The notes below the pieces were generated by a model that was not told the origin of the DNA, made no database searches, and saw nothing but the letters and a program-made list of their open reading frames with translations. Below, one piece after another: positions 20,766 to 34,220 of a stretch of DNA of 64,000 bases; position 1 is the stretch's first letter; each line of letters begins with the position of its first letter. Source of the DNA: Escherichia coli (GTDB lineage Bacteria > Pseudomonadota > Gammaproteobacteria > Enterobacterales > Enterobacteriaceae); assembly GCF_003790525.1 (NCBI RefSeq), contig NZ_CP033635.1. One strand, given 5' to 3'. The position numbers and the translations under genes were made by a program.

Positions 20766-21117
20766 AGTTACCTTCTGTAGATACGAATTGTTGTATCGCA
20801 GAAGATTCCATGTCGACAGCGGTACACTCAATTGATTAGGCCATCATGTACGACAATGGTTCCTGTAAAGAGTGTAAAGACTAGTCAGGACATAACCACG
20901 AGGAGCATGAATGCGGTGGCTCTACTTTATCACTGGCTGACTGCTTTCAGCTACTGATTATTAATCGTGCAAAGTAAAAAGTTTTCCGCACGCAATAGCG
21001 TTGCATTTAACGTGCTGTTTTCATTGATGCTTAGCAAAAATTGCCAGAGGTTAAGGATTGTCTTACTATTAAAGTGACTGAAGTTACAGGTTTTTTAGCG
21101 CGGCAGGAGGTTGAGCT

Positions 21118-21360
21118 ATGATTTATTTATGGATGTTTCTCGCCCTGTGTATTGTCTGCGTAAGCGGATACATCGGTCAGGTCCTGAACGTGGTCTCGGC
21201 GGTCTCTTCTTTCTTCGGCATGGTGATCCTCGCTGCACTCATTTACTACTTCACCATGTGGTTAACTGGCGGTAATGAACTAGTGACGGGGATATTTATG
21301 TTTCTTGCCCCGGCTTGTGGCTTGATGATTCGCTTTATGGTGGGGTATGGCAGGCGCTAG
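21118..21360 (+). CDS. yfdY: Small membrane protein YfdY, 80 aa
   Basis: Two predicted TM helices; position between lpxP and ypdI. Confidence 0.7.
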   Translation: MIYLWMFLALCIVCVSGYIGQVLNVVSAVSSFFGMVILAALIYYFTMWLTGGNELVTGIFMFLAPACGLMIRFMVGYGRR

Positions 21361-21436
21361 TGGGTCAGGATGGTTCATTTGGGCAGGTGTTCACATCAGC
21401 ATCAGGCATGATTGTTCACCTGCCATGTGACAGACG

Positions 21437-21712
21437 CTATCGCACAGGATGGATAAGATAATTCGCCTTTGTCGGAAAAGGGGGCGGAATTTCATCTGTG
21501 AGGTTTAATGGTGGCGCATCTTCTCTCATTTTTAACAAAATCGCCTGTGATGGCTGAAATTTTGTAGAATGAGTTGTCGTCATCATTGACGTTTTTTCTG
21601 TCTCTTTATAGCTCGCCTCACTACCACCACCAGAAATAGAAAATGCAAAAACATTGCATGCCATAATAGAGACCAATAAAAATAAGCTAAAAAGCATTAA
21701 GTTTACTTTCAT
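21437..21712 (-). CDS. ypdI: Small lipoprotein YpdI, 91 aa
   Basis: Signal peptide with lipobox-like IMAC; position between yfdY and yfdX. Confidence 0.7.
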   Translation of the reverse strand: MKVNLMLFSLFLLVSIMACNVFAFSISGGGSEASYKETEKTSMMTTTHSTKFQPSQAILLKMREDAPPLNLTDEIPPPFPTKANYLIHPVR

Positions 21713-21854
21713 AGAAAGTTATCCTGAAAATGGTTCACTGAAAACCTACGACGTTATTGCTGTATTTACATATAATTAATCAGTATTTACATCGATATAA
21801 TAAATGACATCTCTTTTTGGTATATAAGAATAGTTCTCTGTGACAGGAAGCATA

Positions 21855-21872
21855 TTCCTACAACTGTAAGAC
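21855..21872. promoter_or_regulatory. EvgA box-like 18-bp inverted repeat upstream of yfdX
   Basis: TTCCTACA-AC-TGTAAGAC matches TTCYTACA-N2-TGTARGAA at 17 of 18 positions; a weaker second copy lies at 21893..21910. Confidence 0.6.
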
Positions 21873-22007
21873 TAAATGCCGCTTTGCGATAATAACTACA
21901 GTTGTAAGATAACCCTTTCAAAATGTCCGTTGCTCTCTGATTTCTCATTTCATGCTCACCCAATATGATGGCGGCGTTTTCTAAAACTGTTAAAGAATGA
22001 GGTAAGT

Positions 22008-22631
22008 ATGAAACGTTTAATTATGGCTACGATGGTCACAGCAGTTCTGGCATCTTCAACTGTATGGGCTGCTGATAATGCACCGGTAGCGGCACAACAG
22101 CAAACTCAGCAAGTTCAGCAAACGGCAGCAGCAGAGCGTATCTCTGAACAAGGTTTATATGCGATGCGTGACGTGCAGGTAGCGCGCCTGGCTCTGTTTC
22201 ATGGCGATCCGGAAAAGGCAAAAGAACTGACCAATGAAGCTTCCGCTTTGTTGTCAGATGACAGTACCGAATGGGCAAAGTTCGCAAAGCCAGGTAAAAA
22301 GACCAATGTCAATGATGACCAATATATTGTCATTAATGCATCTGTCGGAATTTCTGAGAGTTATGTAGCGACACCTGAAAAAGAAGCCGCGATAAAAATT
22401 GCCAACGAAAAAATGGCGAAAGGGGATAAAAAGGGCGCAATGGAAGAGCTTCGCCTGGCCGGTGTTGGTGTAATGGAAAACCAATATCTGATGCCGCTTA
22501 AACAGACTCGTAATGCACTTGCTGATGCGCAGAAACTGCTTGATAAAAAGCAATACTACGAGGCAAACCTGGCGCTTAAAGGTGCGGAAGATGGAATCAT
22601 CGTCGATAGCGAAGCACTGTTTGTGAACTAA
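22008..22631 (+). CDS. yfdX: Periplasmic protein YfdX, 207 aa
   Basis: Signal peptide [21 protein letters not shown]; first gene of the EvgA-regulated oxalate cluster. Confidence 0.82.
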
Positions 22632-22874
22632 AGCTGACAGGCAATATATTGAGGTAAAGGATTTTACTCCCTCCAGCCGACAATTTTTTATGGCCACAAT
22701 ACGACAGGTTGTGGCCATAAAATTATTTGGCGCTCGCGGTTCTATAAACTCGAATTTTATCTTCCTCAAAGTAAACCGCAATAATCCCGTGTTATCACAA
22801 ATCATTTATTATGTTATGTTTTATGGTACGCTTTAAAAAGCGTAATCATACCCTTACTTGTAAATCACTGGCGC

Positions 22875-22892
22875 TTCTTACAGTTGTAAGAA
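22875..22892. promoter_or_regulatory. EvgA box (perfect 18-bp palindrome) between yfdX and frc
   Basis: TTCTTACA-GT-TGTAAGAA is a perfect match to the EvgA consensus inverted repeat. Confidence 0.65.
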
Positions 22893-23142
22893 TAACATCA
22901 CAAATGTCGCGGCTCTCTCTGATTACCGCGAGCCAATATTTATCATATTCTTCTTTTCGTCCTCACTACTTACCATGCAGAAAGGAATTGGAAGTAGCGA
23001 TGAAATGATTTTCAGTACTTGATACAGGAATTTAAAAATATCGAGTGCAGCTACGACGATATTTTGCGGATTATTTATAGAGGCGTTATGTCTTAAATAA
23101 ACGCTAAATTAACACATATTTAATTAACTAATAGGTATTGCT

Positions 23143-24393
23143 ATGTCAACTCCACTTCAAGGAATTAAAGTTCTCGATTTCACCGGTGTGCAATCTGGCC
23201 CATCTTGTACTCAAATGCTGGCCTGGTTTGGCGCTGACGTCATTAAAATTGAACGTCCCGGCGTTGGTGACGTAACGCGTCACCAGCTGCGAGATATTCC
23301 TGATATCGATGCGCTTTACTTCACCATGCTTAACAGTAACAAACGTTCTATTGAATTAAATACCAAAACAGCGGAAGGCAAAGAGGTAATGGAAAAGCTG
23401 ATCCGCGAAGCTGATATCTTAGTCGAGAACTTTCATCCTGGGGCCATTGATCACATGGGCTTCACCTGGGAGCATATTCAAGAAATCAATCCACGTCTGA
23501 TTTTTGGTTCGATCAAAGGGTTTGATGAGTGTTCGCCTTATGTGAATGTAAAAGCCTATGAAAACGTTGCTCAGGCAGCGGGTGGCGCGGCATCCACTAC
23601 GGGTTTTTGGGACGGTCCGCCGCTGGTAAGCGCTGCAGCGTTGGGTGACAGCAACACCGGAATGCATTTACTGATCGGTTTACTTGCTGCTTTGCTGCAT
23701 CGCGAAAAAACGGGGCGTGGGCAACGAGTCACCATGTCAATGCAGGATGCCGTATTGAACCTTTGCCGCGTGAAATTACGCGACCAGCAGCGTCTCGATA
23801 AATTGGGTTATCTGGAAGAATACCCGCAGTATCCGAATGGCACATTTGGTGATGCAGTTCCCCGCGGAGGTAATGCGGGTGGTGGCGGTCAGCCTGGCTG
23901 GATCCTGAAATGTAAAGGCTGGGAAACCGATCCTAATGCCTATATTTATTTCACTATTCAGGAGCAAAACTGGGAAAACACCTGTAAAGCTATCGGCAAA
24001 CCAGAATGGATTACCGATCCGGCATACAGTACAGCCCATGCCCGACAGCCACATATTTTCGATATTTTTGCTGAAATCGAAAAATACACTGTCACTATTG
24101 ATAAACATGAAGCTGTGGCCTATTTGACTCAGTTTGATATTCCTTGTGCACCGGTTTTAAGTATGAAAGAAATTTCACTTGATCCCTCTTTGCGCCAAAG
24201 TGGCAGTGTTGTCGAAGTGGAACAACCGTTGCGTGGAAAATATCTGACAGTTGGTTGTCCAATGAAATTCTCTGCCTTTACGCCGGATATTAAAGCTGCG
24301 CCGCTATTAGGTGAACATACCGCTGCTGTATTGCAGGAGCTGGGTTATAGCGACGATGAAATTGCTGCAATGAAGCAAAACCACGCCATCTGA
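23143..24393 (+). CDS. frc: Formyl-CoA:oxalate CoA-transferase, 416 aa
   Basis: Family III CoA-transferase translation; paired with oxc downstream. Confidence 0.9.
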
Positions 24394-24446
24394 TATTAAC
24401 GGGGGCTTCTGGCTCCCAATTTATAAAAATTTCGAGGTTATTAATC

Positions 24447-26141
24447 ATGTCAGATCAACTTCAAATGACAGATGGTATGCATATCATCGTTGAAGCATTA
24501 AAACAGAATAATATTGACACTATTTATGGTGTTGTAGGTATTCCTGTGACGGATATGGCACGCCATGCCCAGGCGGAAGGCATTCGTTATATTGGTTTTC
24601 GTCATGAGCAGTCGGCAGGCTATGCCGCTGCGGCAAGCGGTTTTCTTACCCAAAAACCAGGGATCTGCCTGACAGTGTCTGCGCCAGGATTCCTCAATGG
24701 TTTGACCGCATTGGCCAACGCAACGGTAAATGGTTTTCCGATGATCATGATTAGCGGCTCCAGCGACCGCGCGATCGTCGACCTACAGCAAGGTGATTAT
24801 GAAGAGCTGGACCAAATGAATGCGGCAAAACCGTATGCCAAAGCAGCATTCCGCGTTAATCAGCCGCAGGATCTTGGCATTGCATTGGCACGCGCTATCC
24901 GGGTCTCAGTATCGGGTCGCCCTGGCGGAGTTTATCTTGATTTGCCAGCAAATGTCCTGGCCGCGACGATGGAAAAAGACGAAGCGTTAACCACGATTGT
25001 AAAAGTTGAAAATCCGTCGCCAGCATTATTGCCATGCCCGAAGTCAGTCGCTAGCGCAATTTCGCTTTTAGCAAAAGCTGAACGACCATTAGTTATCCTT
25101 GGCAAAGGCGCGGCGTATTCACAAGCTGATGAACAGCTTCGTGAATTTATTGAAAGTGCCCAGATTCCATTCCTGCCAATGTCTATGGCGAAAGGGATCC
25201 TGGAAGATACACATCCACTTTCTGCGGCAACTGCGCGTTCGTTTGCCCTGGCAAATGCTGACGTTGTCATGCTTGTTGGTGCACGACTGAATTGGTTACT
25301 GGCACACGGTAAAAAAGGATGGGCGGCAGATACACAGTTTATTCAACTGGATATTGAACCGCAGGAAATTGACAGCAACCGCCCCATTGCTGTGCCAGTC
25401 GTTGGCGATATTGCATCCAGTATGCAAGGTATGCTGGCAGAACTGAAACAAAACACATTTACGACTCCACTGGTATGGCGCGATATTTTAAATATCCACA
25501 AGCAGCAAAATGCACAAAAAATGCATGAAAAGTTAAGTACAGATACCCAACCATTAAATTACTTTAATGCATTGAGTGCCGTGCGCGATGTTTTGCGCGA
25601 GAACCAGGATATTTATTTAGTTAATGAAGGGGCAAATACCCTGGATAATGCACGAAATATTATTGATATGTATAAACCACGTCGTCGTCTGGATTGTGGC
25701 ACCTGGGGTGTCATGGGCATCGGTATGGGCTATGCCATCGGTGCTAGCGTGACCTCTGGTTCTCCGGTTGTCGCCATTGAAGGTGATAGTGCTTTTGGTT
25801 TCAGTGGGATGGAGATTGAAACGATTTGTCGATATAACCTGCCGGTGACGATCGTTATTTTTAATAATGGCGGCATCTACAGAGGAGACGGTGTTGATCT
25901 CAGTGGCGCTGGTGCACCATCACCAACAGATCTGTTGCACCATGCAAGGTATGACAAATTAATGGATGCGTTTCGTGGCGTTGGCTATAACGTCACCACG
26001 ACAGATGAACTTCGTCATGCTTTAACCACCGGTATTCAGTCGCGCAAACCGACCATTATTAATGTGGTCATCGACCCTGCAGCAGGAACTGAAAGTGGCC
26101 ATATTACCAAACTTAACCCAAAACAAGTCGCTGGTAATTAA
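24447..26141 (+). CDS. oxc: Oxalyl-CoA decarboxylase (ThDP-dependent), 564 aa
   Basis: Thiamine-diphosphate enzyme translation including the [14 protein letters not shown] cofactor-binding motif. Confidence 0.9.
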
Positions 26142-26209
26142 ATACTGACATCGTCTCCTCTTGCCAACTCATTATCGATGGTGAGGGGACCCTTATCGGA
26201 AATACTATT

Positions 26210-27154
26210 ATGCTAACATTTTTTATTGGCGATTTATTGCCTATTATCGTAATCATGCTGTTGGGTTATTTTAGCGGCAGACGAGAAACTTTTTCAGAAG
26301 ATCAAGCCCGGGCATTTAATAAACTGGTATTAAACTACGCTCTTCCTGCGGCCCTATTTGTTTCTATTACCCGGGCAAACAGGGAAATGATTTTTGCGGA
26401 CACTCGCCTGACCCTTGTATCACTTGTGGTTATTGTCGGATGTTTCTTTTTCTCCTGGTTTGGTTGCTACAAATTTTTTAAACGTACCCATGCAGAAGCA
26501 GCAGTATGTGCATTAATTGCAGGTTCACCTACCATCGGATTCCTGGGGTTTGCAGTTCTCGACCCTATTTATGGTGATTCCGTATCAACAGGTTTAGTGG
26601 TAGCAATTATTTCTATTATTGTTAACGCAATTACTATTCCTATTGGTCTGTATTTGTTGAATCCTTCCTCAGGAGCGGATGGTAAGAAGAATAGCAATCT
26701 GAGCGCATTAATTTCTGCGGCAAAGGAGCCAGTAGTATGGGCACCTGTTCTGGCAACGATCCTGGTGTTGGTTGGGGTAAAAATTCCGGCAGCATGGGAC
26801 CCAACCTTTAATCTGATTGCGAAGGCTAACTCAGGGGTAGCGGTATTCGCTGCGGGGTTGACTCTGGCTGCACATAAATTCGAGTTCAGTGCCGAAATTG
26901 CTTATAACACCTTCCTGAAGCTGATTCTGATGCCACTGGCGCTGCTTCTCGTGGGTATGGCATGTCATTTGAACAGCGAACATTTGCAGATGATGGTACT
27001 GGCAGGCGCCTTACCGCCGGCATTCTCCGGAATCATTATTGCCAGCCGGTTTAATGTCTATACCCGCACTGGTACAGCATCATTGGCTGTGAGCGTACTG
27101 GGCTTTGTCGTCACGGCTCCCTTGTGGATTTATGTCAGTCGACTGGTTTCATAA
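26210..27154 (+). CDS. yfdV: AEC-family transporter YfdV, 314 aa
   Basis: Multi-TM translation in the frc-oxc cluster. Confidence 0.82.
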
Positions 27155-27227
27155 TTAATCATGTTATTGATTTTACATAAATGCCGAAGTGTCTTTTCAC
27201 CTTCGGCTTTTTTCAAGGCATAAGCAA

Positions 27228-28373
27228 ATGACAAATAATGAAAGCAAAGGGCCGTTTGAAGGCTTATTAGTTATCGATATGACGCATGTCCTTAATGGGC
27301 CTTTCGGAACTCAACTTCTTTGTAATATGGGCGCAAGGGTAATTAAAGTTGAGCCGCCAGGTCATGGTGATGATACCCGCACATTTGGTCCCTATGTGGA
27401 TGGACAGTCACTCTATTACAGTTTTATTAATCATGGCAAAGAGAGTGTGGTTCTTGATTTAAAGAATGATCACGATAAAAGTATATTTATAAATATGCTT
27501 AAACAAGCTGATGTATTAGCTGAGAATTTTCGCCCAGGTACAATGGAAAAACTGGGGTTTTCATGGGAAAGGTTACAAGAAATCAACCCGCGCCTTATAT
27601 ATGCTTCATCGTCAGGTTTCGGACATACCGGTCCGCTAAAAGATGCTCCTGCCTACGATACCATCATTCAGGCAATGAGCGGGATAATGATGGAAACAGG
27701 ATACCCTGATGCTCCGCCAGTGCGCGTTGGTACCTCTCTTGCGGATCTATGTGGTGGTGTTTATTTATTCAGCGGAATAGTGAGTGCACTTTATGGCCGC
27801 GAAAAGAGCCAGAGAGGTGCGCATGTCGATATAGCGATGTTTGATGCCACGCTGAGTTTTCTGGAGCATGGACTGATGGCATATATCGCGACTGGGAAGT
27901 CACCACAACGCCTGGGAAATCGCCATCCCTACATGGCACCTTTTGATGTTTTTGATACTCAGGATAAGCCGATTACAATTTGTTGTGGTAATGACAAGCT
28001 TTTTTCTGCGTTATGCCAGGCACTGGAGCTTACAGAACTGGTTAATGATCCCCGATTTAGCAGCAATATTTTACGCGTACAAAACCAGGCTATTCTTAAA
28101 CAATATATTGAGCGAACGTTAAAAACGCAGGCAGCTGAAGTTTGGTTAGCCAGAATACATGAAGTTGGTGTACCCGTCGCGCCGTTATTAAGTGTGGCTG
28201 AGGCCATTAATTTGCCACAAACTCAGGCGAGAAATATGTTGATTGAAGCCGGAGGAATAATGATGCCAGGTAATCCGATAAAAATCAGCGGCTGCGCGGA
28301 CCCGCATGTTATGCCGGGAGCGGCAACGCTCGACCAGCATGGGGAACAAATTCGCCAGGAGTTCTCATCATAA
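27228..28373 (+). CDS. yfdE: Acetyl-CoA:oxalate CoA-transferase YfdE, 381 aa from Met MTNNESKG
   Basis: Paralogue of frc (family III CoA-transferase); the track ORF has a 13-codon upstream extension. Confidence 0.85.
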   Translation: MTNNESKGPFEGLLVIDMTHVLNGPFGTQLLCNMGARVIKVEPPGHGDDTRTFGPYVDGQSLYYSFINHGKESVVLDLKNDHDKSIFINMLKQADVLAENFRPGTMEKLGFSWERLQEINPRLIYASSSGFGHTGPLKDAPAYDTIIQAMSGIMMETGYPDAPPVRVGTSLADLCGGVYLFSGIVSALYGREKSQRGAHVDIAMFDATLSFLEHGLMAYIATGKSPQRLGNRHPYMAPFDVFDTQDKPITICCGNDKLFSALCQALELTELVNDPRFSSNILRVQNQAILKQYIERTLKTQAAEVWLARIHEVGVPVAPLLSVAEAINLPQTQARNMLIEAGGIMMPGNPIKISGCADPHVMPGAATLDQHGEQIRQEFSS

Positions 28374-28428
28374 ATGTAAGATGTGCTGGTAAATAGCTCC
28401 CACATTAGAACATTGTGGGAGCCGCAAT

Positions 28429-31400
28429 TTAGTCATTTTTCTGACAGAAAACAGCAATCTCCTGGTCCAGCTCTGCAATGTGTTCTTTTACAGAGTTCAG
28501 CAACTGAAGAATTTCAGGCTTACTGTCATCTGAAACAGGTGTTATTTCTAACTGATGGCTAATATTAATCAACTTTTGCAAATTCAGGATGTTAGCCGCA
28601 CCGTGGATGCGATGAATACACTGATGGAAAGTTCTGTTATCGCCAGCTTCTAGTGCATGAAACGCAGCGGGTAGATCTTTATGCGTTTCATGCTGGAAAG
28701 TCATGAGAATCTCCTGCATCAGTTGTAGATCATTCGCCGTATTATTCTTCAGGGCCTCGATATCAAGGTGGCGATACTGAGGTGCAATATGCGCAACCTG
28801 GTGTAACTGACTTAAATGTGTTTTCAGTACATCCAGAGTCAACGGTTTGAACAAACATAAGTTCATGCCGCAATTTAACCCTTTTTCACGTTCGTTAGCC
28901 TGTGCGTTGGCTGTAAGCCCCCAGATGGGTAAGGAAGAATTTTGCTCACGGAGTTTGCGAGTCAACTCAAAACCATCCATATTCGGCATATTTACGTCAG
29001 TAATAAGCAGATCATAATGTTGCATACTGATTTTGTGTAGCGCTTGCACACCATCAGTGGCTTCATCAACATCATATCCTAATAGATTTAGCTGGCGTTT
29101 GAGTAATAGCCTGTTGGTCGGATGATCATCCGCGATTAATATGCTCAACTTTTCAGGTAGTGTGATAGGTTGTTCTGCTTTTGTCTCTATAGCCGCCACT
29201 TGTTGGGTAATTTCTACCGGGATTGTGATCGTAAATATCGTTCCTATGCCTGGATGACTTTCTAATGACAAATCGCCCTGCATGTTTTTTATTAATTCTT
29301 TGCAGATCATTAAGCCTAAACCAGAACCTGTTTGCTGACGACCTGCACTTGTTTGGCTATAGCGTTTAAACAGTTGTTGTTGTTCTTCCTGCGATAATCC
29401 ACTTCCAGAATCCATAATCGTCATTTTGATAACAGCGTGGTTGTCATCAATGTGACCCAGGGAGGTCGTAATTTTTACTGCTCCCTCGGTAGTAAATTTG
29501 AGAGCATTACTCAGTAAATTAGATAAGACCTGCTTAAACGCCTGAGGGTCGATCTTAACCAGGTAGCGTTCAGGAAACGTACTGCTGCAACTTAATGCGA
29601 TGGATTTGCTTGCAGCAATCGCACCGAAAGAGTGACAAGTGTTCTGGACTAAAGTAGGGATATCGACCCATTGTGGTTGAAGTTGATAGTTACCCGATTC
29701 AATTTTGTCGACATCAAGGATTTCACCAATTAAGCCGAGGAGTGATTGTCCGGTGGCGTAGGCAAGTGAAATCGCCTCCACCCGTTGCTCCTTGCTAAGA
29801 CCAGAACCCGACAGTAGTTCCAGGAAGCCCATAATGGAGCTTATTGGTGTTCTTATTTCGTGACTCATTGTTGCCAGAAACTGGCTTTTTGCGACAGTTG
29901 CATTGATCGCTTTATTTCTCTCTACTTCGAGTGCATGAATTAAATCACGCGTCTCGGTAATATCTTGCCAACCACAAATATAAACAGCATGTTCGCTTGC
30001 TGGCAGATTACATAAGGTATGCCAGTGATTAATGCATCTTTTCTCGATGCCATTATCAATTTCAAATACCTGTGTGTATATTGTTCGGTTTTCTTTCGTT
30101 TCTGCTGTGACTTCATGCGTATTAGAAAAAACATCTTTAAAGGGGGATTCACTGTTTTCTAATGGTAACATTGCACTTTTATAGTAATCAGCAGTGAAAT
30201 AATGTTCAAATGCACTATTGTGACTAATGACATTACCTTGCCAGTTTACAACATAAGTTGGATTCGGTAAGGAGTCCGAGAGTGCTTTCCGGAATGATAT
30301 TTGGTTTTCTAAATCACCCTGAATAACTTTACGACGACGAACTGAGCGTAACAGGTAGAATCCCCATAAAAGGCTACTGCCAACTAATAAAACGGATAAT
30401 GTCGTAACAATATAAAATTGCTCGCTATAGAGGTCCCATGTATCAATGGTCACATTGGGCATTTTAATCCATTTTTCGGTCAGGCGCAGAACTTCGCTTG
30501 GGGGAATTGCATTCAGTGCTTTATTAATAATATCCTTAAGTTCCGGTTCTCCGCGAGGAAAAGCGAACGAAAGTGATGCATTCTGAACGCCGGGAATAAG
30601 AAAATGATAAAGTTCATTAGGATAGTAATGGTCGATCATGTAACGCGAATTTAACTGTGTCGCGACCAGAGCATCAAGTTCACCTTCCTTGACCTTGTGA
30701 AATGCAGCGCTGGCGTTATCGACTTTTATCCACTCTACCTCCGGATACATCTCTTTTAATTGCGAATGAAGCTCATAATAATATGGAATGGCAACTTTCA
30801 TTCCTTTTTTTAATGTTTGTTCACTGTCAGGCGCTTTTTGCATGACAAAAACGTAAGGCGTTGTTATGAAGGCTTCAGCAAATGAAACATTATTTTCTCG
30901 ATCTTCACTATAAATAGCGGCGGGCAATATATCCCATCCACCGGGGTTAAGCTGTGTCCCCGCATGAATATTGTGTGAAACGGTGATCGGAGAAAAATTT
31001 AAACCTGTTTGCAAGGTAATAATATTAAGAATATCACCCATCACGCCCCGAACTGAGCCAGTTTCATCTGTCATAGAATAGGGTGGCGAGTAAGGATTTT
31101 CCAGCACCTTTAAATCGGGATGCTGCTTAATCCACTGTTTTTCATGTTCAGTGAGTTCTAATGGTTTGTTCAGAAAGGCCAGGTTTCCTGTATCAAGCCA
31201 ATTTTGTGATACTTCATAGCGAACTTCATTTGTTAAAGCATCAACAAATCGATTGAGTACTTCATTAAGAACGATTGAATCTTTTCTGGTTAATAAAAAG
31301 TTATATTGACGCGGTGAGTTATAATACTTCACTACATTTAAGGAGTGAGTAAAATAACGGGAAATCATACTGCTGGTAATGATGTTACTACCAATAAAGT

Positions 31401-32022
31401 AATCATTCTGTCCGGCTGAGACGGATGCTAATGCCTGATATAAATTTGTAAAAGAGATAATTGTTGCTTTTGGAAATGATTGATGAATTACCTCGTCTGG
31501 GGGATAATTTGCTACTCGAGCAATATTTACTGGTTTTGATGAGGTAAGCGGTCGCATTGAATCGTGAAGGGTAGTGACCAGCGCCGGAAAGGTAATTATC
31601 AGAGGATTAGTTGCAGCAATGTCATCATTAAGAGGCGGCGAAGCAACTAAATGTGATAACACTATATCAACTTCACCGTCTTCCAGCGCGTCCATTGCTT
31701 TTTGATGATCTGCGTATTCCCGGAGTGTTAATTTGATATTTAACGCTCTTTTTAAAAGATTTAAATAATCAGCATTAATACCACGAATCCGTTGCTGCGA
31801 ATCGGTATGCAACAACGTAGCTGTTTGGGACTTGTGTACTGCAATCACAAGATTTTTTTTGCTCGCTAGCCAACGTAATTCCTTGTTGCTCAGACGTAGT
31901 GGATCAAGTGTGACACGGTTGTTACTACTGATGCCACGATATTCGATGTAATCTCCGTCTGCGAAACTTATGGTCGACCAAAGACCACAACAGAGAAGAA
32001 AAATATAGGGTAAAAACTTCAT
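28429..32022 (-). CDS. evgS: Hybrid sensor histidine kinase EvgS, 1197 aa
   Basis: Signal peptide, tandem periplasmic solute-binding-like domains, TM, HisKA/ATPase, receiver and HPt domains. Confidence 0.92.
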   Translation of the reverse strand: MKFLPYIFLLCCGLWSTISFADGDYIEYRGISSNNRVTLDPLRLSNKELRWLASKKNLVIAVHKSQTATLLHTDSQQRIRGINADYLNLLKRALNIKLTLREYADHQKAMDALEDGEVDIVLSHLVASPPLNDDIAATNPLIITFPALVTTLHDSMRPLTSSKPVNIARVANYPPDEVIHQSFPKATIISFTNLYQALASVSAGQNDYFIGSNIITSSMISRYFTHSLNVVKYYNSPRQYNFLLTRKDSIVLNEVLNRFVDALTNEVRYEVSQNWLDTGNLAFLNKPLELTEHEKQWIKQHPDLKVLENPYSPPYSMTDETGSVRGVMGDILNIITLQTGLNFSPITVSHNIHAGTQLNPGGWDILPAAIYSEDRENNVSFAEAFITTPYVFVMQKAPDSEQTLKKGMKVAIPYYYELHSQLKEMYPEVEWIKVDNASAAFHKVKEGELDALVATQLNSRYMIDHYYPNELYHFLIPGVQNASLSFAFPRGEPELKDIINKALNAIPPSEVLRLTEKWIKMPNVTIDTWDLYSEQFYIVTTLSVLLVGSSLLWGFYLLRSVRRRKVIQGDLENQISFRKALSDSLPNPTYVVNWQGNVISHNSAFEHYFTADYYKSAMLPLENSESPFKDVFSNTHEVTAETKENRTIYTQVFEIDNGIEKRCINHWHTLCNLPASEHAVYICGWQDITETRDLIHALEVERNKAINATVAKSQFLATMSHEIRTPISSIMGFLELLSGSGLSKEQRVEAISLAYATGQSLLGLIGEILDVDKIESGNYQLQPQWVDIPTLVQNTCHSFGAIAASKSIALSCSSTFPERYLVKIDPQAFKQVLSNLLSNALKFTTEGAVKITTSLGHIDDNHAVIKMTIMDSGSGLSQEEQQQLFKRYSQTSAGRQQTGSGLGLMICKELIKNMQGDLSLESHPGIGTIFTITIPVEITQQVAAIETKAEQPITLPEKLSILIADDHPTNRLLLKRQLNLLGYDVDEATDGVQALHKISMQHYDLLITDVNMPNMDGFELTRKLREQNSSLPIWGLTANAQANEREKGLNCGMNLCLFKPLTLDVLKTHLSQLHQVAHIAPQYRHLDIEALKNNTANDLQLMQEILMTFQHETHKDLPAAFHALEAGDNRTFHQCIHRIHGAANILNLQKLINISHQLEITPVSDDSKPEILQLLNSVKEHIAELDQEIAVFCQKND

Positions 32023-32026
32023 GTGG

Positions 32027-32641
32027 TTAGCCGATTTTGTTACGTTGTGCGAATGTGTAAAGATCCATCAGTGATTTGCATTCTAATTTTTCCATCAAGC
32101 GACTTTTATACGTGCTGACAGTTTTGTTGCTGATGAACATTTTTTCAGCAATGTCATTATTATCCTTGCCATCAAGAATATACCGCATGACACTAATTTC
32201 TTGTTTCGATAAGGAGTCGAGTTTTTGCTGGTCGGACGTTAAACTTCCAACAAACCGGTTGAGAGAGAAGGGGAAATAGCAGTAGCCATTTTTTGCAGCT
32301 TCAATAGCCGCAATGATATTGTTCATGCCTTCTTTTTTACTCACGAAACCATTAGCGCCAGCATCAGCACAATGTTTCCCGTAAAAATGGTCATTTTTAG
32401 CGGAGACAATAATAATAATTCCGCTATATTGGCGCTTTCTCAGCGTTTCTAACACCTGGATACCGTTAACTCCGGGGATATCGACATCAATGATGACGAT
32501 ATCAGGCTTAAGTGTTTCCACCCGCTGAACGGCACTTCCGCCTTCAGTCAACTCTGCTAAGATTTCAATATCGTTTTTGATCAATAAATTACGAATTGCT
32601 GCGATAGCAAGAGGATGGTCATCAATAATTATTGCGTTCAT
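32027..32641 (-). CDS. evgA: Response regulator EvgA (receiver + LuxR-type HTH), 204 aa
   Basis: Receiver domain plus C-terminal LuxR/FixJ HTH; immediately upstream of evgS on the same strand. Confidence 0.92.
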   Translation of the reverse strand: MNAIIIDDHPLAIAAIRNLLIKNDIEILAELTEGGSAVQRVETLKPDIVIIDVDIPGVNGIQVLETLRKRQYSGIIIIVSAKNDHFYGKHCADAGANGFVSKKEGMNNIIAAIEAAKNGYCYFPFSLNRFVGSLTSDQQKLDSLSKQEISVMRYILDGKDNNDIAEKMFISNKTVSTYKSRLMEKLECKSLMDLYTFAQRNKIG

Positions 32642-32865
32642 AGATTATTCCCTTTGCAATGAAGCATCTCCCTTCTCCCTGTAGTAATACAGACATAAGG
32701 CATCATCTCATTTTCTCAATAAAAATAAGAAAATTTGAGCTTCCTTTAAGATAATTCGACAAGTATACCATATAAATAGTCGGCATATATGAAATGTCAA
32801 CAATAAAATCAGGGATTGTACCGATGATTTATAGTTTCACATTAGCACTATAAGTCTTCTCACTA

Positions 32866-32883
32866 ATCCTACAGGCGTAAGAA
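32866..32883. promoter_or_regulatory. EvgA box in the evgA-emrK divergent intergenic region
   Basis: ATCCTACA-GG-CGTAAGAA matches the EvgA consensus at 16 of 18 positions. Confidence 0.6.
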
Positions 32884-33056
32884 TTGTATTGCAAAAGCCA
32901 CGGTTTAGTCCTCTGTTGTTTTTTTTGCACCTCATTTAAATTAGGCCTCCAACGTTCCTGGGATAATGTGCAACACATGCACTGTGTTTGATATGAAGAA
33001 TGAATACTCTTTTCATTCAATTCATAAATTTCATCTATGCGAAATGAGAGATAAAA

Positions 33057-34220
33057 GTGGAACAGATTAATTCAAATAAAAAACATTCTGACAGAAAAAA
33101 ATATTTTGCTTTGTTAGCGGTAGTTTTATTTATTGCGTTTTCAGGTGCCTATGCCTATTGGTCAATGGAATTAGAAGACATGATTAGTACAGATGACGCC
33201 TATGTCACGGGAAATGCAGATCCAATTTCTGCACAAGTTTCAGGCAGCGTCACTGTCGTTAATCATAAAGATACGAACTACGTTCGACAGGGTGACATTT
33301 TAGTCTCACTGGATAAGACTGATGCCACTATCGCACTCAATAAAGCTAAAAATAATCTGGCCAATATTGTTCGGCAAACGAATAAACTGTACTTACAGGA
33401 TAAACAATACAGTGCCGAAGTCGCTTCAGCTCGTATTCAGTATCAACAATCTTTAGAAGATTATAACCGTCGTGTACCTTTAGCGAAGCAGGGGGTTATT
33501 TCAAAAGAAACGCTGGAGCATACCAAAGATACGTTAATAAGTAGCAAAGCGGCATTGAATGCTGCTATTCAGGCTTATAAAGCGAATAAAGCTTTAGTAA
33601 TGAACACACCATTAAACCGTCAGCCACAAGTCGTTGAAGCGGCGGATGCAACCAAAGAAGCCTGGTTGGCGCTTAAACGTACGGATATTAAGAGTCCGGT
33701 TACCGGCTATATTGCCCAGCGAAGTGTTCAGGTCGGCGAAACAGTGAGTCCCGGACAATCGTTAATGGCTGTCGTACCGGCACGTCAAATGTGGGTTAAT
33801 GCCAACTTTAAAGAAACACAACTCACGGATGTGCGGATTGGTCAATCGGTCAATATTATTAGCGATCTTTATGGTGAAAATGTTGTGTTTCATGGTCGGG
33901 TGACAGGGATCAATATGGGAACCGGCAATGCGTTCTCCTTATTACCTGCACAAAATGCGACAGGGAATTGGATCAAAATCGTTCAGCGTGTACCGGTTGA
34001 GGTTTCTCTTGATCCAAAAGAACTCATGGAACATCCCTTGCGCATTGGTTTATCGATGACTGCAACTATTGATACCAGGAACGAAGACATTGCCGATATG
34101 CCCGATCTGGCTTCAACCGTGACGTCCATGCCTGCTTATACCAGTAAGGCTTTAATTATCGATACCAGTCCGATAGAAAAAGAAATTAGCAACATTATTT
34201 CGCATAATGGACAACTTTAA
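33057..34220 (+). CDS. emrK: Multidrug efflux membrane-fusion protein EmrK (EmrA paralogue), 387 aa
   Basis: HlyD-family periplasmic adaptor translation with single N-terminal TM. Confidence 0.88.
   Translation: MEQINSNKKHSDRKKYFALLAVVLFIAFSGAYAYWSMELEDMISTDDAYVTGNADPISAQVSGSVTVVNHKDTNYVRQGDILVSLDKTDATIALNKAKNNLANIVRQTNKLYLQDKQYSAEVASARIQYQQSLEDYNRRVPLAKQGVISKETLEHTKDTLISSKAALNAAIQAYKANKALVMNTPLNRQPQVVEAADATKEAWLALKRTDIKSPVTGYIAQRSVQVGETVSPGQSLMAVVPARQMWVNANFKETQLTDVRIGQSVNIISDLYGENVVFHGRVTGINMGTGNAFSLLPAQNATGNWIKIVQRVPVEVSLDPKELMEHPLRIGLSMTATIDTRNEDIADMPDLASTVTSMPAYTSKALIIDTSPIEKEISNIISHNGQL

Follow-up and report, generated by a model that had tools for sequence, protein, structure and literature searches.

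Four 18-bp inverted repeats in the evgAS-linked acid-resistance and efflux cluster of E. coli are very probably operator sites of EvgA, the regulator encoded in the same cluster, a reading for which the literature supplies binding and induction. That EvgA boxes occur at yfdX, frc and emrK and that frc has its own promoter was known before, and finding them here is a rediscovery. Comparative analysis of the boxes additionally indicated that their half-sites are constrained while the spacer between them is free to vary, and a polymorphism in the number of boxes upstream of yfdX was detected.

EvgA boxes in the evgAS-linked cluster

The analysed stretch of DNA (64 kb, hereafter the window) was scanned in full with the pattern TTCYTACANNTGTARGAA (TTCYTACA-N2-TGTARGAA), allowing up to three mismatches. 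Exactly four matches were obtained, starting at positions 21855, 21893, 22875 and 32866 with 1, 3, 0 and 2 mismatches, respectively. These are the four inverted repeats of the original prediction, at the same coordinates. All four are confined to three intergenic regions, upstream of yfdX, frc and emrK/evgA, and the earlier assignment of these genes around the boxes was correct against the annotated coordinates. The features of the region are as follows.

21855..21872: distal of the two EvgA boxes 5' of yfdX (TTCCTACAACTGTAAGAC, 1 mismatch; its centre precedes the yfdX ATG by 144.5 bp)
21893..21910: proximal of the two EvgA boxes 5' of yfdX, degenerate (TAACTACAGTTGTAAGAT, 3 mismatches; its centre is 38 bp from that of the distal box)
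21911..21969, plus strand: conserved module after the proximal box with putative yfdX core promoter (TCAAAATGTCCGTTGCTCTCTGATT; from promoter scan, alignment to the frc region and conservation)
22008..22631, plus strand: yfdX CDS
22686..22722, plus strand: terminator-like hairpin 3' of yfdX (15-bp stem, then T-rich tail)
22875..22892: EvgA box 5' of frc (TTCTTACAGTTGTAAGAA, 0 mismatches; its centre precedes the frc ATG by 259.5 bp)
22893..22950, plus strand: conserved block 3' of the frc box, presumed EvgA-dependent frc core promoter (TAACATCACAAATGTCGCGGCTCTCTCTGATT...CCAATATTTATCATATT)
23143-24393, plus strand: frc, oxalate/acid-tolerance gene
24447-26141, plus strand: oxc, oxalate/acid-tolerance gene
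26210-27154, plus strand: yfdV, oxalate/acid-tolerance gene
27228-28373, plus strand: yfdE, oxalate/acid-tolerance gene
28429-32022, minus strand: evgS, sensor kinase
32027-32641, minus strand: evgA, NarL/LuxR-type response regulator (annotated WP_000991370.1)
32866..32883: EvgA box between the divergent genes evgA and emrK (ATCCTACAGGCGTAAGAA, 2 mismatches)
33057-34220, plus strand: emrK, MFS efflux pump together with emrY
34220-35758, plus strand: emrY, MFS efflux pump together with emrK

The emrK box precedes the emrK GTG by 182.5 bp and the evgA ATG by 233.5 bp. Upstream of yfdX, a promoter scan identified the promoter-like sequence TTCTCA-16-TATGAT at 21942-21969. If promoter-like -10 elements of this kind are used, the box centres would lie roughly at -60 to -75 from the transcription start, and the distal yfdX box at about -112. 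An Rfam scan of positions 21000-34000 returned two sub-threshold chance matches only, and no known RNA element was found in the long frc leader.

The number of matches exceeds chance expectation. Dinucleotide shuffles of the window (n = 100) gave a mean of 0.58 matches, and four matches were reached in none of them. Based on 1000 first-order Markov simulations, the expected number of matches per window is <0.001 for zero mismatches, 0.006 for one, 0.058 for two, 0.67 for three and 6.1 for four, so that the frc, distal yfdX and emrK boxes are each improbable on their own. The proximal yfdX box had been predicted as a weaker copy and is indeed present, while its motif score alone is at chance level (three-mismatch class) and other evidence is therefore needed. 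Its position, its conservation and its homology to the frc site provide this support. The frc box had been called a perfect palindrome. Its 8-bp arms are fully complementary and its match to the consensus is perfect, but the central GT lacks self-complementarity, and the 18-mer as a whole therefore falls short of a perfect palindrome. Two other roles for the repeats were rejected: an RNA hairpin, since a 2-nt loop cannot be folded, and a repeated mobile element, since the region is single-copy (median of one place per genome).

Half-site conservation and occurrence beyond the window

The window is E. coli DNA and is 100% identical to strain SMS-3-5, with about 96% identity to K-12 in this region. 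Among 10 diverse E. coli genomes, variable columns made up 1 of 64 positions in the box arms, 4 of 8 in the central dinucleotides and 109 of 1149 (9.5%) in the remaining intergenic sequence (Fisher tests: 0.015 for arms versus flanks, 0.0003 for central dinucleotides versus arms). The frc box is invariant in these genomes, as is the block 3' of it within E. coli; the emrK box arms do not vary in E. coli either, and the proximal yfdX box is conserved among the 10 genomes. All four boxes are also kept in a divergent Escherichia locus (L012), where intergenic identity to the window is 82-85% and only 3 of 64 arm bases are changed (binomial P = 0.003). None of these three changes weakens the match, and two of them make the emrK box perfect (TTCCTACAGGTGTAAGAA). 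In case of the distal yfdX box, the arms are invariant in the 10 genomes and L012 alike and variation is found in the central dinucleotide only, which is also the only part of the frc box that differs in L012. This pattern points to constraint on the half-sites with a spacer that is free to vary, and it is one of the few modestly new, comparative results of this work.

Further matches to the motif were found upstream of safA (TTCTTACAGCTGTAGGCA, one mismatch to the EvgA-box consensus) and ydeP (TTCTTACAGGTGTAGGCT, two mismatches) in K-12. Both genes are established direct EvgA targets. Outside Escherichia, at least 79 frc loci among the matches listed (1.48 Mb) contained only two three-mismatch matches, with none near frc in the two loci that were inspected. 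At the two closest non-Escherichia loci among the matches listed (Moellerella and Providencia), evgAS was absent within 10 kb of frc. The contig scan was based on Frc and included one Escherichia locus among the matches listed, and is thus uninformative on other Escherichia species. The absence of boxes from frc clusters without evgAS, among the matches listed, is a second modestly new comparative result.

The conservation data bear directly on whether the repeats have any function. We attach a negligible probability to the view that they are chance AT-rich palindromes or relics without a present regulatory role. The intergenic regions are AT-rich and three-mismatch copies have an expectation of 0.67 per window, yet the better three sites have the far lower expectations given above, every box falls in one of the three regions that regulate EvgA-induced genes, the arms are conserved while the spacer varies, the L012 substitutions shift the emrK box towards the consensus, and the motif recurs at safA and ydeP. 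This view is already contradicted by the statistics and the conservation. A functional site could also be bound mainly by another LuxR/GerE-family regulator such as RcsB or GadE instead of EvgA. Several E. coli GerE-domain regulators recognise short inverted repeats with TAAGA/TCTTA-like elements, and RcsB is among the structural relatives of EvgA. We nevertheless consider such a regulator very improbable, since the motif accompanies evgAS, is missing from frc clusters without evgAS (among the matches listed) and marks exactly the genes reported as direct EvgA targets. Of these, emrKY and ydeP have no other common regulator in EcoCyc (PMC8174306).

Control by EvgA and the probable separate frc transcription unit

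Direct control by EvgA agrees with the domain structure of the regulator and with published work. EvgA carries Response_reg and GerE domains (Pfam) and matches PDB 5F64 (E = 5e-132), belonging to the same family as 5F64, 8ZWN and 3F6C; its nearest solved relative outside EvgA is NarL. According to PMC3720670, inverted repeats bound by EvgA induce yfdX and yfdWUVE (citing Masuda & Church 2003), and PMC9496106 and PMC8174306 report binding of EvgA to the emrKY promoter (citing Kato et al. 2000). Every gene under direct EvgA regulation has an EvgA site, and an evgS-constitutive mutant shows induction of frc and emrKY, strongest for frc (PMC4283999). At pH 5.8, expression of yfdX, frc, oxc and yfdV rises by about log2 4-5 (PMC10746267). 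The predicted direct control of the oxalate-catabolism genes and emrKY is thus supported by the literature, by arm conservation and by the motif at safA and ydeP. In motif, position, occurrence at other targets, linkage to a cognate regulator and constraint on the half-sites, the repeats look like EvgA boxes.

The K-12 EvgA regulon (ydeP, safA-ydeO, yfdX, frc/yfdW and emrKY) shares the 18-bp 8-2-8 inverted repeat, the genes and the regulator with the window (Masuda & Church 2003, Kato et al. 2000 and Itou et al. 2009, as relayed by PMC3720670, PMC4283999 and PMC8174306). The boxes occupy the same four positions in K-12, and their sequences differ from those of the window only in the central dinucleotides of both yfdX boxes. 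There is no difference of substance, the window representing a phylogroup-divergent strain of the SMS-3-5 type. The 7-2-7 sites of NarL resemble EvgA boxes in that inverted half-sites 2 bp apart are bound by a GerE-type helix-turn-helix dimer after phosphorylation; they differ in half-site sequence and frequently occur as multiple sites in various arrangements. BvgAS of Bordetella is the homologue behind the EvgAS name, and both systems combine an unorthodox phosphorelay with a NarL-family regulator. In BvgA virulence promoters, as in EvgA promoters, a long distance separates the core promoter from a high-affinity inverted repeat upstream of it. By analogy to BvgA, one may speculate that the conserved in-register sequence between box and core promoter serves secondary binding. 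No recognisable secondary half-sites were found 3' of the EvgA boxes despite the conserved in-register blocks, the best candidate being a ACAAATGT core at 22900-22907.

An internal promoter for frc-oxc-yfdV-yfdE had been proposed from the frc box. This promoter is already published and is supported by the literature (PMC3720670), by the hairpin after yfdX and by a homologous promoter module. The hairpin at 22686-22722 has a folding energy of -27.8 kcal/mol (z = -7.3), and a G:C pair in its stem is A:T in other strains, with both sides of the stem changed. Such a strong hairpin 3' of yfdX, with its compensatory change, fits a frc promoter of its own. Further, the frc box and about 30 nt 3' of it can be aligned in the same register with the region of the proximal yfdX box, a score reached by 9 of 2000 shuffles. 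The region downstream of the emrK box could not be aligned significantly with the frc or safA regions. The only sequence that it has in common with the frc/safA downstream regions is AGTCCT at the same offset. In a promoter scan, no consensus-like -35/-10 (sigma-70) pair was detected between the frc box and frc. This would suit an activator-dependent promoter, and it is also the reason why we can only infer the position of the frc promoter. Genomic SELEX identified sites for RNA polymerase-sigma70 and H-NS in both the yfdX-frc and the emrK-evgA spacers (PMC3946193).

The same observations can be read without a promoter of frc's own. The yfdX promoter would then serve all five genes, and the frc box would allow read-through from afar, through looping to the yfdX boxes about 1 kb away or through displacement of H-NS. 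The literature often writes of a 'yfdXWUVE operon', yfdX and frc/oxc/yfdV are induced similarly at pH 5.8 (PMC10746267), H-NS reportedly has a site between yfdX and frc (PMC3946193), and the promoter scan found no consensus-like core promoter 3' of the frc box. Still, we regard a single promoter as unlikely. It would have to account for a very stable hairpin with T-rich tail and compensatory change after yfdX, for sequence downstream of the frc box that shows in-register homology to the yfdX module and does not vary in E. coli, and for sigma-70 holoenzyme binding in the spacer by genomic SELEX (PMC3946193). In addition, yfdX and yfdWUVE are each induced via their own inverted repeats, according to PMC3720670.

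With a separate frc promoter, the cluster would operate as follows. At mildly acidic pH, EvgA would be phosphorylated by the sensor kinase EvgS, and a dimer of its LuxR/GerE-type helix-turn-helix domains would occupy the two 8-bp arms, 2 bp apart. Bound upstream of weak, H-NS-covered core promoters, EvgA would activate three transcription units: yfdX with two boxes 38 bp apart; frc-oxc-yfdV-yfdE with one perfect box 3' of the yfdX terminator hairpin; and emrKY, whose box would be common to the divergent evgAS promoter region.

Box number variation and implications

Of 5,426 complete E. coli genomes, 415 (about 8%) have three boxes at yfdX owing to a 38-bp duplication between the two boxes, as counted with a junction-specific 45-mer. 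No description of this three-box variant was found in the literature searched, and the duplication with its third yfdX box may be a new by-product of the analysis. The yfdX-proximal and frc promoters have the box and about 30 nt in common, in register, and so do the safA and ydeP promoters. EvgA-box promoters might thus form a small evolving family of duplicated cassettes with copy-number polymorphism of the yfdX box, an idea that we put forward tentatively and hold to be rather doubtful.

In conclusion, reading the DNA on its own was enough to work out correctly how the evgAS-linked acid-resistance/efflux island is regulated in cis. The box arrangement confirmed here is textbook or database knowledge and brings no new biology. 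If box number tunes the acid-induced expression of yfdX between lineages, the three-box variant would represent natural variation in the output of a two-component system at a single promoter, and it might offer a natural experiment on operator number.

EvgA-type boxes and their gene neighbourhood

A search of the whole 64-kb window for TTCYTACANNTGTARGAA with at most three mismatches gave exactly four matches:

21855-21872, distal yfdX box, TTCCTACAACTGTAAGAC, 1 mismatch
21893-21910, proximal yfdX box, TAACTACAGTTGTAAGAT, 3 mismatches
22875-22892, frc box, TTCTTACAGTTGTAAGAA, 0 mismatches
32866-32883, emrK/evgA box, ATCCTACAGGCGTAAGAA, 2 mismatches

All four boxes claimed by the original prediction were thus recovered in place. 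Dinucleotide-shuffled sequences contained 0.58 matches on average and never reached four (0 of 100 shuffles). According to 1000 first-order Markov simulations, <0.001, 0.006, 0.058, 0.67 and 6.1 matches are expected per window at 0, 1, 2, 3 and 4 mismatches, respectively. The three sites with 0, 1 and 2 mismatches are therefore each far beyond chance, while the proximal yfdX box, described previously as a weaker copy, belongs to a class expected 0.67 times per window and needs other grounds than motif score. The 22875 site had been called a perfect palindrome; its 8-bp arms are indeed fully complementary and free of mismatches, but the central GT is not self-complementary, so that it is a perfect inverted repeat and not strictly a perfect palindrome. 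The 4-mismatch class is mildly over-represented in the window (11 observed) and includes two matches 40 bp apart at 40320 and 40360 (40320-40377), the former with a perfect left arm (TTCTTACA).

The 13 kb carrying the boxes (21000-34000) show 100% identity to several E. coli strains, SMS-3-5 among them. Gene calls were taken from the RefSeq annotation and an ORF list:

ypdI, strand (-)
22008-22631, yfdX
23143-24393, frc
24447-26141, oxc
26210-27154, yfdV
27228-28373, yfdE
28429-32022, evgS, strand (-)
32027-32641, evgA, strand (-)
33057-34220, emrK
34220-35758, emrY

The yfdX boxes are centred 144.5 bp (distal) and 106.5 bp (proximal) 5' of the yfdX ATG and the frc box 259.5 bp 5' of the frc ATG. 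From the centre of the emrK/evgA box it is 182.5 bp to the emrK GTG and 233.5 bp to the evgA ATG. EvgA consists of a receiver and a GerE/LuxR helix-turn-helix domain and matches the solved EvgA structures 5F64, 8ZWN and 3F6C, with NarL as the next nearest solved relative. A 9-codon leader ORF, evgL (MLHCKGNNL*, 32638-32667, strand (-)), overlaps the evgA start; it is annotated in K-12 (L003, 3730-3759) and also present in the window, though unannotated in the SMS-3-5 record.

Box conservation and association with evgAS

K-12 MG1655 carries the same four sites at orthologous positions. Two further K-12 genes have the motif upstream: safA, with 1 mismatch and the centre 120.5 bp from the ATG, and ydeP, with 2 mismatches and the centre 252.5 bp from the ATG. 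PMC9496106 and PMC8174306, citing Itou et al. 2009, name ydeP and safA-ydeO as direct EvgA targets.

Most E. coli are ca. 96% identical to the window in this region. All four boxes were present in every one of 10 E. coli genomes compared, including eight further ones sampled across the identity range. Variable columns made up 1 of 64 arm positions, 4 of 8 central N2 positions and 109 of 1149 other intergenic positions (9.5%), with Fisher tests giving 0.015 for arms vs flanks and 0.0003 for N2 vs arms. A divergent genome labelled E. coli SCPM-O-B-8794 (L012; EvgS 90.7%, intergenic regions 82-85% identical to the window) retains 4 of 4 boxes with only 3 of 64 arm bases changed (binomial P = 0.003 at flank divergence). 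None of these changes weakens the match, two of them make the emrK box perfect (TTCCTACAGGTGTAAGAA), and the frc box differs from that of the window solely in the central dinucleotide. Constrained half-sites with a free spacer are the pattern predicted for a dimeric helix-turn-helix operator. The reading of the boxes as chance palindromes is contradicted by both the match statistics and this conservation and is excluded; their recognition by some other regulator of the GerE family has no support.

A Frc query against species-representative genomes listed at least 79 loci outside Escherichia, together 1.48 Mb; that further Escherichia species are missing from the matches listed permits no inference about them. 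Across these loci only two 3-mismatch box matches were found, one in Moellerella, 5.6 kb upstream of frc, and one in a Variovorax locus. The nearest frc-oxc-yfdV relatives among the matches listed were those of Moellerella wisconsensis and Providencia stuartii (Morganellaceae; Frc 86-87% identical), where evgS, evgA, yfdX and emrK were not found within 10 kb. This hints that the frc-oxc-yfdV core may have been horizontally acquired, with EvgA control added later. Both species carry a second frc-like gene after yfdV, in the place of yfdE. In L012 (14089-15228), YfdE is 71% identical to the window protein, compared with 97-99% for its neighbours Frc, Oxc and YfdV, suggesting allele replacement or a different paralogue there.

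A probable separate frc promoter

Three sequence-based lines agree with an EvgA-dependent promoter of its own for frc-oxc-yfdV-yfdE. Just 3' of yfdX lies a terminator-like hairpin (22686-22722; 15-bp stem followed by a T-rich tail; -27.8 kcal/mol, z = -7.3 vs shuffles), in which one stem pair is G:C in the window and A:T in nine other E. coli and L012, both sides having changed. The region of the proximal yfdX box can be aligned, in register, to the frc box plus 30 nt (TACAGTTGTAAGA-TAAC..TCA.AAATGTC.CG..CTCTCTGATT; 21893-21943 vs 22875-22925); with boxes excluded, 9 of 2000 shuffles reached this score. In E. coli the block after the frc box does not vary. The alignment puts the "weaker" yfdX box in the same promoter-proximal place as the frc box, and this likeness is the best argument that the proximal yfdX box is functional. 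An RNA polymerase-sigma70 site and an H-NS site were mapped by genomic SELEX to each of two spacers, yfdX-frc and emrK-evgA (PMC3946193).

One rival alone carries some weight: the frc box would work on read-through from the yfdX promoter instead of on a promoter of its own. Against it stand the hairpin after yfdX, the homologous promoter module at frc and the published statement in PMC3720670. A simple promoter scan detected TTCTCA-16-TATGAT (21942-21969) 3' of the proximal yfdX box. After the frc box it picked up no consensus-like pair, as would fit a promoter that needs an activator. Should transcription use the -10-like elements at about 21964-21969 and 22934-22947, the promoter-proximal boxes would be centred at about -60 to -75, and the distal one of yfdX at about -112. 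The ca. 190-nt frc leader, which gave no Rfam match, contains a 15-codon ORF (22975-23022, strand (+), MQKGIGSSDEMIFST*) within a block nearly invariant in E. coli. It is unannotated in K-12 and SMS-3-5; in L012 the frame is still open, with a displaced stop and several residues substituted, its protein being poorly conserved.

Promoter variation and EvgA control

In strain MS6193 (L011, 11756-11849, orthologous to 21855-21910), a 38-bp tandem duplication between the yfdX boxes yields three EvgA-type boxes 38 bp apart, the middle one (TAACTACAATTGTAAGAC) being a hybrid of the proximal left and distal right arms. Of 5,426 complete E. coli genomes, 415 contain a 45-mer unique to the duplication junction, some of them in up to 3 copies. 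Downstream of their boxes, K-12 safA and ydeP likewise have an in-register block of about 30 nt in common (score reached by 23 of 2000 shuffles). EvgA-dependent promoters thus appear to occur as homologous pairs (yfdX-proximal/frc and safA/ydeP), suggesting duplicated cassettes or a common constraint between box and core promoter. At 24-29 nt past the box end, AGTCCT is found in emrK (32907-32912) and safA and AGTCTT in ydeP, while frc and yfdX have TCTCTG at this offset. The AGTCCT/AGTCTT feature reached no significance by alignment; it may represent a secondary half-site or belong to the -35 region. In strain 165 (NZ_CP020509.1), otherwise 100% identical to the window, IS903B at the yfdX 5' end (orthologous to ca. 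22010-22040) parts yfdX from its EvgA boxes, the annotated CDS being cut to 609 nt. Strain M15 (L007, 13053-14303) carries frc as an annotated pseudogene with an internal stop and an intact EvgA box.

The motif, its placement, the arm-specific constraint, the co-occurrence with evgAS and the yfdX-frc hairpin were observed here; EvgA binding and EvgA-dependent induction are taken from the literature. EvgA activates the yfdXWUVE genes (PMC3720670). In an evgS-constitutive mutant, induction is strongest for frc, and every gene known as directly regulated has an EvgA binding site (PMC4283999). The emrKY promoter region is bound by EvgA (PMC9496106 and PMC8174306, citing Kato et al. 2000), and at pH 5.8 yfdX, frc, oxc and yfdV are up by ca. 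log2 4-5 in ribosome profiling and RNA-seq (PMC10746267). The observation underlying the original prediction is confirmed. Its interpretation is supported, direct EvgA control of the yfdX/frc genes and emrKY by these statements, the K-12 safA/ydeP motif and arm conservation, and the internal frc-oxc-yfdV-yfdE promoter by the hairpin, the homologous block and the SELEX site. Given the published statements on EvgA, the boxes, their EvgA reading and the internal frc promoter are already known.

We propose that a phospho-EvgA dimer would bind each 8-2-8 site, similar to the binding of NarL dimers to 7-2-7 sites. From this upstream position, EvgA would activate three weak promoters under H-NS silencing, those of yfdX, frc-yfdE and emrKY, and the single evgA-emrK box may serve evgAS autoregulation as well.
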